This document shows positions 6,001-9,000 of a stretch of DNA of 64,000 nucleotides, piece by piece. The position numbers were made by a program. Position 1 is the first letter of the stretch. Every line of letters begins with the position of its first letter. Source of the DNA: Escherichia coli (GTDB taxonomy: Bacteria > Pseudomonadota > Gammaproteobacteria > Enterobacterales > Enterobacteriaceae); assembly GCF_965641715.1 (NCBI RefSeq), contig NZ_OZ282453.1; one strand, written 5' to 3'.

Positions 6001-9000
6001 TTCTTTAAAAAATGGAATCCGGGCGCGAATGCTTACCAGTTGCCGGGGGCGAGCGAGATGAGCTTCGAGGGCGGTGTGAGCCAGTCGGCTTACAACACGC
6101 TCGCGTCACTCGATCTGCCGAAACCGAAGCAAGGGCCGGAAACCATTAACAAGGTTACCGAGCATAAGATGTCAGCCGAGTAAGCCTGTATGCCGGATAA
6201 GGCGCTCGCGCCGCATCCGGCATGAAATAAGGCGCACCGGGTCAACACATATGCCCGATGCGCAAGCTTATCGGGCCTACAGAGAGGGAAAGCTGCGTTT
6301 ATTTGCGTTGGCAGACACCTGTAGGCCGGATAAGGCGCTCGCGCCGCATCCGGCATGAAATAAGGCGCATCGGGTTAACACATATGCCCGATGCGCCATC
6401 TTATCGGGTCTTCAGGGAAAGCCGCGATTACTTGCGTTGGCAGATACCTGTAGGCCGGATAAGGCGTTTTACGCCGCATCCGGCAAGTTACAACAAACAA
6501 CCTTTAACCATGCTTTTTGATGTTTTTCAGCAATACCCCGTGGCGATGCCCATACTGGCTACCGTCGGAGGATTGATCATCGGCAGTTTTTTGAATGTGG
6601 TGATTTGGCGTTACCCCATCATGCTGCGCCAACAAATGGCGGAGTTTCATGGTGAAATGCCGAGTGCGCAGTCAAAAATAAGCCTTGCGCTACCGCGTTC
6701 GCACTGCCCACATTGTCAGCAGACCATCCGGATACGTGACAATATTCCGCTGCTCTCCTGGCTGATGCTCAAAGGGCGCTGCCGTGATTGTCAGGCGAAA
6801 ATCAGCAAGCGTTATCCGCTGGTGGAGTTATTGACGGCACTCGCTTTTTTGCTGGCGAGCCTGGTGTGGCCGGAAAGTGGATGGGCGCTGGCGGTGATGA
6901 TATTATCCGCCTGGCTGATTGCCGCGAGCATCATCGACCTCGATCACCAATGGCTGCCCGATGTTTTTACTCAGGGCGTATTGTGGACGGGACTAATTGC
7001 GGCATGGGCGCAGCAGAGCCCGCTCACGCTACAAGATGCAGTCACCGGCGTCCTGGTGGGGTTTATCACTTTTTACTCTCTGCGCTGGATAGCCGGAATA
7101 GTTCTGCGTAAAGAAGCATTAGGCATGGGCGATGTATTATTGTTCGCCGCTTTAGGTAGTTGGGTGGGACCGTTATCACTGCCCAATGTTGCTTTAATCG
7201 CCTCATGCTGCGGCCTGATATATGCCGTTATTACAAAAAGAGGATCAACCACACTGCCTTTTGGACCGTGTTTAAGTCTGGGCGGTATAGCAACACTTTA
7301 TCTACAGGCATTGTTTTAATGATAACCATGTCATTATCAAAGTGACATTTTAACTCTTATTAATAACCTTAGAGATTATTTACCATGTCGATAAAACAAA
7401 TGCCAGGGAGGGTATTAATATCGCTATTGTTGAGCGTTACAGGATTATTAAGTGGCTGTGCCGGCCATAATGAAAATGCCAGTTTACTGGCGAAAAAACA
7501 GGCGCAAAATATCAGCCAAAACCTGCCGATTAAATCTGCGGGATATACCTTAGTGCTGGCACAAAGTAGCGGCACGACGGTAAAAATGACCATTATCAGC
7601 GAAGCGGGTACTCAGACCACGCAGACACCTGATGCCTTTTTAACCAGCTATCAACGACAAATGTGCGCTGACCCAACGGTGAAATTAATGATCACCGAGG
7701 GAATTAATTACAGCATAACGATTAATGATACACGTACAGGTAACCAGTATCAGCGGAAACTGGATCGTACCACCTGTGGAATAGTCAAAGCATAACGTCG
7801 GGTAAATATAAATTGGCGCGGGTTGTTTTTCGTGACGCACGAGTTTATTTCATTCAATGGCTGACTAAAATTCGTCACACTCTTAGCCAGAGACAATCTC
7901 TTAATACAGATAAAGAGCATCTGCGCAAAATTGCACGCGGGATGTTCTGGCTGATGCTGCTTATTATTTCTGCAAAAATGGCGTATTCACTCTGGCGCTA
8001 TTTCTCCTTTTCTGCGGAATATACGTCGGTTTCTCAATCGGTGAATAAACCGACCCGTGCGGATGCAAAAGCGTTCGATAAAAAAGACGCGCAATTAATC
8101 AGCCAGCAAAACTGGTTTGGCAAATATCAGCCCGTCGCCGCACCGGTAAAACAACCCGAACCTGCGCCTGTGGCAGAAACGCGTCTTAATGTGGTGCTGC
8201 GCGGGATCGCCTTTGGTGCCAGACCCGGCGCGGTCATTGAAGAAGGTGGCAAACAGCAGGTCTATTTGCAGGGTGAAACGCTTGGCTCGCACAACGCAGT
8301 GATTGAGGAAATCAACCGCGACCATGTGATGCTGCGCTATCAGGGAAAAATAGAGCGCCTGAGCCTGGCTGAAGAAGAGCGTTCCACCGTAGCCGTGACC
8401 AACAAAAAAGCCATCAGTGACGAAGCAAAGCAAGCTGTTGCTGAGCCTGCTGCCAGTGCGCCAGTTGAGATCCCGACTGCCGTGCGTCAGGCACTGGCGA
8501 AAGATCCGCAGAAAATTTTTAACTATATCCAGCTTACGCCTGTGCGTAAGGAGGGGATTGTCGGTTATGCAGTGAAGCCGGGGGCAGATCGTTCTCTGTT
8601 CGATGCCAGCGGTTTCAGGGAAGGCGATATCGCCATTGCGCTAAATCAGCAGGATTTCACTGATCCACGAGCAATGATTGCTCTGATGCGGCAGTTACCT
8701 TCAATGGATTCCATTCAACTTACGGTTTTACGCAAGGGTGCGCGCCACGACATTTCCATCGCGCTGCGCTAACCGCATTTAATCCAGGAGAATCATTCAT
8801 CGTGTTTTGGCGTGATATTACGTTGTCGGTCTGGCGTAAGAAGACAACTGGCCTCAAAACAAAAAAGCGTTTACTGCCGCTGGTGCTGGCAGCGGCATTA
8901 TGCAGTTCACCGGTCTGGGCGGAAGAAGCCACTTTCACCGCTAATTTTAAAGATACCGACCTGAAATCGTTCATCGAAACCGTCGGCGCTAACCTTAATA

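Follow-up and report, generated by a model that had tools for sequence, protein, structure and literature searches.

The sslE–pppA spacer and its array

The window considered here is a 64,000-nucleotide stretch of Escherichia coli DNA (contig NZ_OZ282453.1 of RefSeq assembly GCF_965641715.1). It carries sslE and pppA, the latter being the first gene downstream of sslE in the sslE/type II secretion beta operon. The two genes are separated by a gap of 326 bp, which is taken up by a tandem array of REP sequences. The array begins directly past the sslE stop codon (TAA, 6181–6183). Strain PapRG-04-4 matches the window at 100% identity over the 501 bp around the spacer.

A first-pass annotation had placed a BIME cluster here, with a unit of about 130 bp repeated some 2.3 times, and both statements are confirmed by repeat analysis and REP typing. 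When run over the whole window, TRF reports 6185–6485 with a period of 133, 2.3 copies, 88% matches, 2% indels and a score of 459. For the intergenic stretch alone the score is 367, far above the maximum of 60 among 200 dinucleotide-preserving shuffles; the tandem structure is genuine. A repeat search of the window returns two direct repeat pairs, 6185–6285/6318–6418 (D1; 101 nt, 92%) and 6285–6337/6414–6466 (D2; 53 nt, 92%). The extent of these pairs indicates that linkers and REP cores alike have been duplicated.

Each unit is ordered as a y REP, a head-to-head linker, a z1-like iREP and a tail-to-tail linker. The array comprises five REPs in the orientation + − + − +, of which three are y-type and two, in alternation with them, are short and z1-like (CCCGAT/ATCGGG stem). 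The head-to-head linkers are 28 nt long and the tail-to-tail linkers 36–40 nt. In the unit alignment, the two full units diverge by about 11% and have a mosaic appearance. The individual parts are listed in Table 1.

Table 1. Features of the sslE–pppA locus and the two further arrays of the window. REP matches refer to y, z1 and z2 consensus sequences that were checked only against canonical copies in the window.
Feature	Coordinates	Strand	Basis
sslE (lipoprotein metalloprotease SslE)	1603–6183	+	mechanical ORF; RefSeq annotation in PapRG-04-4
Tandem BIME array	6185–6485	n/a	2.3 copies of a 133/129-bp unit; TRF score 459
REP 1, y-type, GTAG orientation	6188–6222	+	32/35 to y consensus; hairpin −23.4 kcal/mol
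Truncated REP, copy 1 (ATAAGGCGCACCGGG), in head-to-head linker 1	6227–6241	+	local fold
REP 2, short z1-like, iREP orientation on + strand (ATGCCCGATGCGCAAGCTTATCGGGCCTAC)	6251–6280	−	26/30 to z1 consensus
Upstream extension of the pppA frame, 84 codons, spurious	6258–6509	+	ORF 6258–7319; RefSeq start; alleles
Tail-to-tail linker 1, 40 nt	6281–6320	n/a	weak internal hairpin, −7.6 kcal/mol
REP 3, y-type, GTAG intact	6321–6355	+	33/35 to y consensus
Truncated REP, copy 2 (ATAAGGCGCATCGGG)	6360–6374	+	inverted repeat I5; local fold −25.5 kcal/mol
REP 4, z1-like iREP	6384–6413	−	22–23/30 to z1 consensus
Tail-to-tail linker 2, 36 nt (linker 1 minus 4 nt)	6414–6449	n/a	unit alignment
REP 5, y-type, terminal partial unit	6450–6485	+	34/35 to y consensus
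pppA (prepilin peptidase, 269 aa)	6510–7319	+	ORF list; RefSeq at spacer-identical locus
Second array, yggM/hemW convergent spacer, y/z2 BIME-2 type	30352–30543	n/a	TRF; REP typing; Rfam naRNA4
Third array, speB/loiP convergent spacer, y/z2-like BIME-2 type	46983–47280	n/a	TRF; REP typing

REPs 2, 3 and 5 have an intact GTAG/CTAC foot. The foot is mutated to GTAT in REP 1, where a longer stem results, and is degenerate in REP 4, whose tail reads GGGTCTTC where GGGCCTAC is expected. The stem of REP 1 begins 6–8 nt past the sslE stop codon. The stem of REP 2 reads CCCGAT/ATCGGG instead of CCTGAT/ATCAGG, with z1 being the best match among y, z1 and z2. This CCCGAT-type variant recurs at 34877–34890 of the window, and its median count is 4 places per E. 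coli genome. Comparison of alleles shows that the short ones, found in other strains, have lost an internal part of REP 5.

Every head-to-head linker holds a truncated REP that creates an alternative hairpin of 11–12 bp. In the first unit, the truncated REP can base-pair with the 5′ arm of REP 2; its counterpart in the second unit forms inverted repeat I5, in which it pairs with 6387–6398 in a perfect 12-bp hairpin that is also present in the whole-spacer MFE structure. A second internal palindrome (cccgatgcgc...) had been noticed within the unit and is found as the inverted repeat 6359–6374/6387–6402, 88% complementary. This palindrome is a short z1-like REP combined with the truncated REP.

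Class of the element

The five elements are palindromes with a GTAG/CTAC foot, match the REP consensus and have dispersed extragenic copies; in each E. coli genome, a median of 5–6 places match parts of the array. The fit of the z1-like REPs to z1 is only moderate (22–26/30 to the consensus). About 20 genuine REP tails occur in the 64-kb window, at seven intergenic sites. Two of 22 pattern matches, 15990–16003 and 47934–47947, lie inside ORFs without a REP tail and look like chance. The regular alternation of orientation and the two kinds of linker identify the array as a BIME in the general sense.

Three classes come into consideration. The array resembles BIME-1 (RIP/RIB; y-L-z1, IHF-binding) in having y and short z1-type REPs placed tail to tail across a linker of about 35–40 nt. 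It differs in having neither L motif nor IHF consensus and in being tandem, whereas BIME-1 is single-copy. The L motif is absent from tail-to-tail linker 1 on comparison with the L (50423–50457) of the true BIME-1 of the window (50409–50471). The IHF consensus WATCAANNNNTTR has two matches in the entire window and none in the sslE–pppA array. BIME-1/RIP identity is rejected because of this missing IHF match, along with the missing L linker and a unit repeated 2.3 times.

With BIME-2 (y + z2, gyrase-binding, e.g., REP325/naRNA4), the array shares an amplified REP pair and a strain-variable copy number. In contrast to BIME-2, no z2 REP was found on typing of 6184–6509, the REPs are joined head to head by 28 nt instead of the short S motif, and matches to naRNA4 are sub-threshold. 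BIME-2 identity was set aside for want of z2. The combination of y and z2 REPs is present in both other arrays of the window.

The absence of an L/IHF linker and of a z2 REP leads to the published class of “atypical BIMEs”. As relayed in PMC3333891 from Bachellier/Gilson, this class consists of chimeric BIME-1/BIME-2 components in tandem multiples with variable linkers. The sslE–pppA array has y and z1-like REPs, non-L linkers and 2.3 copies (1.3–3.3 elsewhere), and shares with atypical BIMEs (PMC3333891) the alternating REPs, variable linkers, mixture of BIME-1 and BIME-2 traits (y + z1-type, no L), tandem arrangement and variability between strains. Two details set it apart from them: the z1-like REP, a low-copy subtype, carries a compensated C–G pair (CCCGAT/ATCGGG) in place of T–A, and the truncated REP in the head-to-head linker offers an alternative hairpin. 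It is very probable that the array is an ordinary E. coli BIME of the atypical class, in which a y + z1-like unit of about 130 bp has been tandemly duplicated.

The RefSeq record of MG1655 has no repeat_region feature at the sslE–pppA locus. Descriptions of REP/BIME arrays, their classes and their copy-number variation among strains go back to the 1990s. The array is not a new kind of element, and strain copy-number variation is expected for its class; variation of this type in tandem BIMEs is already published. The kind being known, the array has little value as a discovery.

Spacer alleles and the likely role of the array

Complete E. coli genomes carry sslE–pppA spacers of 129, 139, 147, 155, 163, 197 (K-12), 326 (window) and 459 bp. 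In evenly spaced samples of BLAST rankings, which do not amount to a census, at least 40 independent complete genomes have the identical 326-bp spacer in colinear position and at least 24 the 459-bp spacer. The length polymorphism is population-wide and goes by whole units (1.3, 2.3 or 3.3 copies), and shorter alleles carry nested small deletions. Two partial BLAST matches (H109 and H110) that were considered as IS insertions in the BIME are merely divergent 129- and 155-bp alleles. The sslE, pppA and gsp genes are retained over the whole range of spacer lengths (129–459 bp), and every allele has at least one stable REP hairpin just past the sslE stop codon. These alleles are a clean natural set for asking whether BIME dosage tunes expression in a virulence-associated operon.

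The whole spacer of the window has an MFE of −152.7 kcal/mol (z = −6.9), and folding energy tracks copy number over the alleles, from −52 to −210 kcal/mol. Each of REPs 1, 3 and 5 folds independently into a hairpin (−21 to −23 kcal/mol). The z1-like REPs, when folded locally, prefer to pair with the truncated REP in the alternative hairpin (−17.6 and −25.5 kcal/mol), and REP 4 does not form its own stem at all. No intrinsic terminator was found on the + strand of 5800–6900. A search of the same strand and interval returned no sigma-70 promoter, which leaves an internal pppA promoter without support. As the hairpins of the array have no U-tract, they are not intrinsic terminators. The array is located within the operon rather than past the last gene of a transcription unit.

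Literature describes sslE as co-transcribed with the downstream T2SS genes. By analogy with known intercistronic REPs, the array would be transcribed within a polycistronic sslE–pppA–gsp mRNA, in which its stable hairpins could block 3′–5′ exonucleases and act as partial attenuators. Such a barrier would favor the sslE mRNA over that of the downstream secretion-machinery genes. The likely role of the array is that of an intercistronic mRNA hairpin barrier in the sslE type II secretion operon. BIMEs within polycistronic mRNAs stabilize upstream genes (PMC9023263). An effect on translation may also be postulated: REPs that follow a stop codon by less than 16 nt can reduce translation (Liang 2015, as cited in PMC12306157), and REP 1 falls inside the distance reported to lower upstream translation via ribosome stalling. 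The array resembles malE–malF-type intercistronic stabilizers and the stop-proximal REPs of Liang, Rudd and Deutscher (2015) in lying between two cistrons of an operon, in its stable hairpins without a U-tract and in having its first stem 6–8 nt after the stop; the likeness is one of position and structure only.

A tentative but credible alternative is that the array is selfish or neutral repeat DNA at a tolerated insertion site, with no operon role and subject to recombination drift. The retention of sslE, pppA and the gsp genes at every spacer length is consistent with this, as are the mutated GTAG of REP 1, the degenerate tail of REP 4, and the divergence and mosaic look of the units. The stable hairpin after the sslE stop in all alleles argues against it, as do intercistronic REPs with documented effects on mRNA stability (PMC9023263), though neither point is decisive here.

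Since the operon is kept at 129–459 bp, a change in copy number may have hardly any phenotypic effect, or none. It has been considered whether BIME copy number (0.x, 1.3, 2.3 or 3.3 units) could instead act as a strain-specific rheostat of the secreted substrate SslE relative to the type II secretion machinery, with SslE translation additionally modulated through the stop-proximal REP. This extension of the hairpin barrier is argued from analogy and appears rather improbable. The level of SslE has been reported to differ between pathotypes, and a rheostat, if real, could contribute to these differences.

Gain of units and other readings of the spacer

The 459-bp allele (GF66.1) equals the allele of the window plus one unit. 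The second unit of GF66.1 is identical to unit 1 of the window apart from its GTAG start, which is that of unit 2, and the junction lies within 45 nt of y REP and linker sequence over which the units do not differ. On this sequence evidence, the 3.3-copy allele is derived from the 2.3-copy allele of the window by the gain of one unit in a single event. The extra unit would be the product of unequal homologous exchange or of replication slippage between repeats. The junction cannot tell RecA-dependent exchange from slippage, and argues only against one TnpA_REP cut site. The single K-12 unit was also considered as a simple chimera, with the 5′ part of unit 1 and the 3′ part of unit 2 joined by a single unequal crossover. 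It turned out to be a mosaic in which states are shared with unit 1 or with unit 2, and this simple one-step history is therefore rejected.

Amplification by TnpA_REP (RAYT), through cleavage at C↓T in the iREP or linker followed by strand transfer, appears unlikely as the source of the tandem units. BIME substrates are cleaved and recombined by this enzyme in vitro, and published models add units in this manner (PMC3333891). The required GTAG is present in REPs 3 and 5, and CTAC in REP 2. However, the z1-like iREPs read TGCC↓CGAT rather than the type I site TGCC↓TGAT, so that the essential C↓T is missing. Moreover, the added unit of the 459-bp allele combines a unit 1-type body with the G that is typical of unit 2 at position 4 of GTAG. 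The junction accordingly lies 3′ of the type II site, as predicted for simple homology-driven exchange.

Similar arrays had been noted after yggM (30310–30545) and speB (46975–47285), and both proved to be real. The array at 30352–30543 has a period of 87 with 2.2 copies and 90% matches (TRF score 310 vs. a shuffle maximum of 36); that at 46983–47280 has a period of 113 with 2.7 copies and 91% matches (498 vs. 47). The yggM/hemW spacer is 242 bp in the window and 154 bp in MG1655, and the speB/loiP spacer 318 bp and 205 bp, respectively. Relative to MG1655, the window has one extra unit at each of the three arrays, and a between-strain check finds all three polymorphic in one-unit length steps. 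The earlier view of these arrays as candidate recombination hotspots holds in the sense that length polymorphism, which does not give a rate, supports “recombination-prone”. Three sites of whole-unit difference between close E. coli genomes could serve as a typing marker and call for caution in short-read assembly.

It is very improbable that the array encodes a nucleoid-associated ncRNA of the naRNA4/REP325 kind. Weak matches to Rfam RF02564 occur at 6191–6261, 6324–6398 and 6453–6491, but they score 31–37 bits (27.9–37 bits over 6191–6491), below the gathering threshold of 59.5 bits. As REP pairs underlie the family, a partial match is expected from any y REP, and the threshold is passed only by the y/z2 array (30419–30489, 63 bits). 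With sub-threshold naRNA4 matches as the sole outcome of the Rfam scan at the sslE–pppA array, the sRNA reading was rejected.

Short reads can mis-assemble tandem repeats of about 130 bp, but an assembly artifact is scarcely credible as the origin of the extra copy, given the recurrence of both long spacers in complete genomes and full units that differ by 11% and are hence easily resolved.

It is just as implausible that the open frame upstream of pppA encodes a real N-terminal extension of PppA, even though it begins with ATG and is in frame with the gene. The mechanical ORF 6258–7319 would encode 353 aa, compared with 269 aa for the annotated protein, and the RefSeq start is the ATG equivalent to 6510 in every strain examined. 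The open frame upstream of this ATG measures 93, 45, 35, 29 or 3 codons depending on the allele. The 133-bp unit is not divisible by 3, indels of 133, 34, 16 and 8 bp disrupt the frame, and the peptides are unrelated among alleles. Because the frame is not preserved in other alleles, the extension is spurious, as the first-pass annotation had held. The array accounts for this 84-codon extension and for other REP-derived ORFs, which is of value for the annotation of pppA.

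Tandem structure and REP composition

The BIME array that follows sslE fills the 326 bp from the sslE stop codon (TAA, 6181–6183) to the pppA start codon (ATG, 6510). The first-pass annotation had described a unit of ~130 bp repeated about 2.3 times, and this repeat is real. Tandem Repeats Finder (TRF) reports 6185–6485 of the window with a period of 133, 2.3 copies, 88% matches, 2% indels and a score of 459. The intergenic stretch alone scores 367, against a maximum of 60 in 200 dinucleotide-preserving shuffles. As direct repeats of 101 nt (6185–6285/6318–6418) and 53 nt (6285–6337/6414–6466) are present, both at 92%, the duplication covers the linkers as well as the REP cores. 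The similar arrays claimed after yggM and speB were also recovered, at 30352–30543 (period 87, 2.2 copies, 90% matches; score 310 vs a shuffle maximum of 36) and 46983–47280 (period 113, 2.7 copies, 91% matches; 498 vs 47).

REP elements, linkers and BIMEs of the window (iREP, inverted orientation)
Feature	Coordinates	Details
REP 1, y-type	6188–6222	32/35 to consensus; GTAG changed to GTAT, giving a longer stem
Head-to-head linker 1	6223–6250	28 nt; holds truncated REP ATAAGGCGCACCGGG at 6227–6241
REP 2, z1-like, opposite orientation	6251–6280	ATGCCCGATGCGCAAGCTTATCGGGCCTAC; 26/30 to z1
Tail-to-tail linker 1	6281–6320	40 nt
REP 3, y-type	6321–6355	33/35 to consensus
Head-to-head linker 2	6356–6383	truncated REP at 6360–6374
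REP 4, z1-like	6384–6413	22–23/30; tail degenerate
Tail-to-tail linker 2	6414–6449	36 nt
REP 5, y-type	6450–6485	34/35 to consensus
Leader ahead of pppA	6486–6509	24 nt; 0–2 substitutions among all alleles examined
BIME	27106–27149	z1 iREP + y REP; tail-to-tail linker 16 nt
BIME, three-REP cluster	34877–34967	CCCGAT z1-like REP adjoining z2/y pair
Canonical BIME-1	50409–50471	y iREP, 35-nt L linker AAGATCGTGCAAATTCAATATATTGCAGGAAGTAT, z1 REP

In the classification of Ton-Hoang et al. (2012; PMC3333891), BIME-1 are single-copy combinations of y and z1 with a conserved L linker, often with an IHF site, BIME-2 are tandem copies of y and z2 with a short S linker, and atypical BIMEs are chimeric combinations with variable linkers that are also found in multiple copies. 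The sslE array is not a BIME-1: a pattern scan of it gave no match to the IHF consensus, and its linker is not of the L type. BIME-1 are single-copy, whereas the sslE array is tandemly repeated, and the L motif of the window's canonical BIME-1 is unlike the array's tail-to-tail linker. BIME-2 is ruled out by REP typing, which found no z2 REP in the array. With both classes ruled out, the array fits the atypical class, with a y/z1-like composition. The z1-like REP carrying CCCGAT has a second window copy at 34877–34890 and a median of 4 matching places per E. coli genome (range 1–9); it is a minor but recurrent subtype, and REP 2 has a compensated C-G pair in place of the usual T-A.

The yggM/hemW and speB/loiP arrays were typed as y/z2, of the BIME-2 type. 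The yggM/hemW array scores 63 bits for Rfam naRNA4, above the gathering score of 59.5, whereas the sslE array reaches only 28–37 bits, and an naRNA4 reading of it is rejected on these sub-threshold scores. The match at 30419–30489 to naRNA4 (RF02564; nucleoid-associated ncRNA, based on REP325) is a plain y/z2 REP pair of the yggM/hemW array; thus RF02564 will flag ordinary BIME-2 units. The canonical BIME-1 is itself matched by Rfam ES036 (CssrF), an sRNA, over its L linker and the REP next to it (50423–50465; 53.5 bits, gathering score 37.6).

The second internal palindrome of the first-pass annotation was traced, by inverted repeat and fold, to pairing of the truncated REP with the z1-like REP's 5′ arm. 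The copy-2 pair is predicted to fold into a perfect hairpin of 12 bp (−25.5 kcal/mol), and this type of hairpin is predicted to compete with the z1-like REP's own stem. The whole spacer as RNA has a predicted energy of −152.7 kcal/mol (z = −6.9 vs shuffles).

Spacer alleles and the pppA frame

The proposed comparison of copy number between strains was run on complete genomes, and sslE–pppA spacers range from 129 to 459 bp. Lengths of 129 bp (L008 and L011, loci of other E. coli genomes, and AVS0578), 139 bp (O22:H8 strain 154), 147 bp (KO11FL), 155 bp (AF22), 163 bp (B-DidR, N21), 197 bp (K-12 C600, MG1655), 326 bp (the window, PapRG-04-4, O55:H7 strains) and 459 bp (GF66.1 and at least 23 others) were found. 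The long alleles differ from one another by whole units. The short alleles are separated from the long by a 34-bp indel that is bounded by the direct repeat ATCGGG and takes out exactly the z1-like REP, by a deletion inside the terminal y REP, and by a shorter tail-to-tail linker. Approximate frequencies, drawn from the BLAST ranking sampled at even intervals and not from a census, put the short alleles at ~44% of records, the 197-bp allele at ~15–19%, the 326-bp allele at 40–92 genomes and the 459-bp allele at 24 genomes or more, with no full match at the locus in about one third of genomes. The window stands exactly one unit above MG1655 at all three arrays, with spacers of 326 vs 197 bp (sslE), 242 vs 154 bp (yggM/hemW) and 318 vs 205 bp (speB/loiP). 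The sslE array is established as a non-coding BIME that gains and loses whole units.

In O22:H8 strain 154, an 8-bp deletion leaves the first REP 1–2 nt from the sslE stop (TAACCCGGATAAGG), so the stop-to-REP distance is itself polymorphic. The O55:H7 strains and the atypical O157:H7 LSU61 carry the spacer in its 2.3-copy form (98.8% identity). In a spread BLAST sample, typical O157:H7 strains gave stray REP matches only, which suggests that their lineage lacks the locus or has it in altered form.

The mechanical ORF 6258–7319 (353 aa) is the pppA frame, which reaches into the repeats for 84 codons upstream. In other alleles the frame stays open for 93, 45, 35, 29 or 3 codons upstream of the annotated ATG, with unrelated peptides; indels of 133, 34, 16 and 8 bp separate the alleles; and the RefSeq pppA start is equivalent to 6510 in every strain examined. 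A coding N-terminal extension is therefore rejected, and the first-pass view of the run into the repeats as spurious is borne out. The minus-strand 338-aa mechanical ORF 46107–47123, antisense through speB and starting within the speB/loiP array, is likewise a repeat-seeded spurious ORF.

PapRG-04-4 is identical to the window over 501 bp around the spacer, and its RefSeq gene order is sslE, pppA, gspS2, gspC, gspD. The ORF run after pppA in the window (6510–18498), up to tRNA-Phe (18423–18498, minus strand), fits a complete type II secretion beta cluster; by comparison, only pppA, yghG, yghF, yghE and yghD are retained ahead of pheV in MG1655. Short tandem repeats in the 5′ part of sslE (1768–1884; periods 30, 12 and 18; 69–90% matches) resemble a repetitive linker region in the SslE lipoprotein. 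The MG1655 RefSeq record of the locus (NC_000913.3, 3114550–3119112) has no repeat_region feature for the yghJ–pppA spacer BIME and gives yghJ/sslE the name 'putative mayloidogenic protein', seemingly a misspelling.

Possible role in the transcript and origin of the units

According to a passage of PMC5012682 citing Yang et al. (2007), sslE and 13 downstream T2SS genes form one polycistronic mRNA. From this reported co-transcription, the array would be an intercistronic RNA element of the sslE–T2SS transcript. On the plus strand around the spacer, a scan of 5800–6900 found neither a U-tract terminator nor a sigma-70-like promoter. BIMEs within polycistronic mRNAs stabilise upstream genes (PMC9023263), and a passage of PMC12306157 citing Liang et al. 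(2015) states that a REP whose distance from the stop codon is below 16 nt can reduce the upstream gene's translation. The first REP stem begins 6–8 nt past the sslE TAA. By analogy, sslE mRNA is predicted to be more stable relative to the pppA–gsp portion, and SslE translation may be somewhat damped. Predicted folding energy grows with copy number: the 129-bp spacer is at −52.5 kcal/mol and the 459-bp spacer at −209.5 kcal/mol. That the array is instead purely neutral, selfish DNA is a sizeable but minority possibility.

The extra unit of GF66.1 equals window unit 1, the first of two full copies, save for the GTAG start of unit 2 (99.2% vs 100%). Because a unit-1 body follows a unit-2 start, the junction is placed between positions 4 and 50 of the unit, a stretch that both window units share without a difference. 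Unequal homologous exchange or slippage would be expected to yield such a product. Amplification catalysed by RAYT is possible in principle, but the type I site's C|T is absent from the z1-like iREPs, and this one datable junction falls in a homology tract. An assembly artefact is rejected for the extra copy, as the 326-bp allele recurs in at least 40 genomes and the 459-bp allele in at least 24. The two full window units show 11% difference, and in K-12 the unit is a mosaic of the two; thus either the first duplication is old or recombination between alleles has occurred.

The BIME class, tandem amplification and copy-number variation between strains are already published. The last is stated by Ton-Hoang et al. 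(PMC3333891), citing Bachellier et al. (1997), who in their title describe BIMEs as 'a major source of sequence polymorphism in Escherichia coli intergenic regions'. Only locus-specific details are added here, namely the series of spacer alleles, the junction within the 459-bp allele and the composition of y and z1-like REPs. The other arrays also vary in length between genomes: the matched BLAST span (spacer plus flanking coding sequence of the query) was 601, 513 or ~423 bp for yggM/hemW and 681, 568, 452 or 410 bp for speB/loiP. The expanded speB/loiP allele looks rare, with 2 records only at ≥99% identity and the full span in the top row only of a 45-row spread sample.
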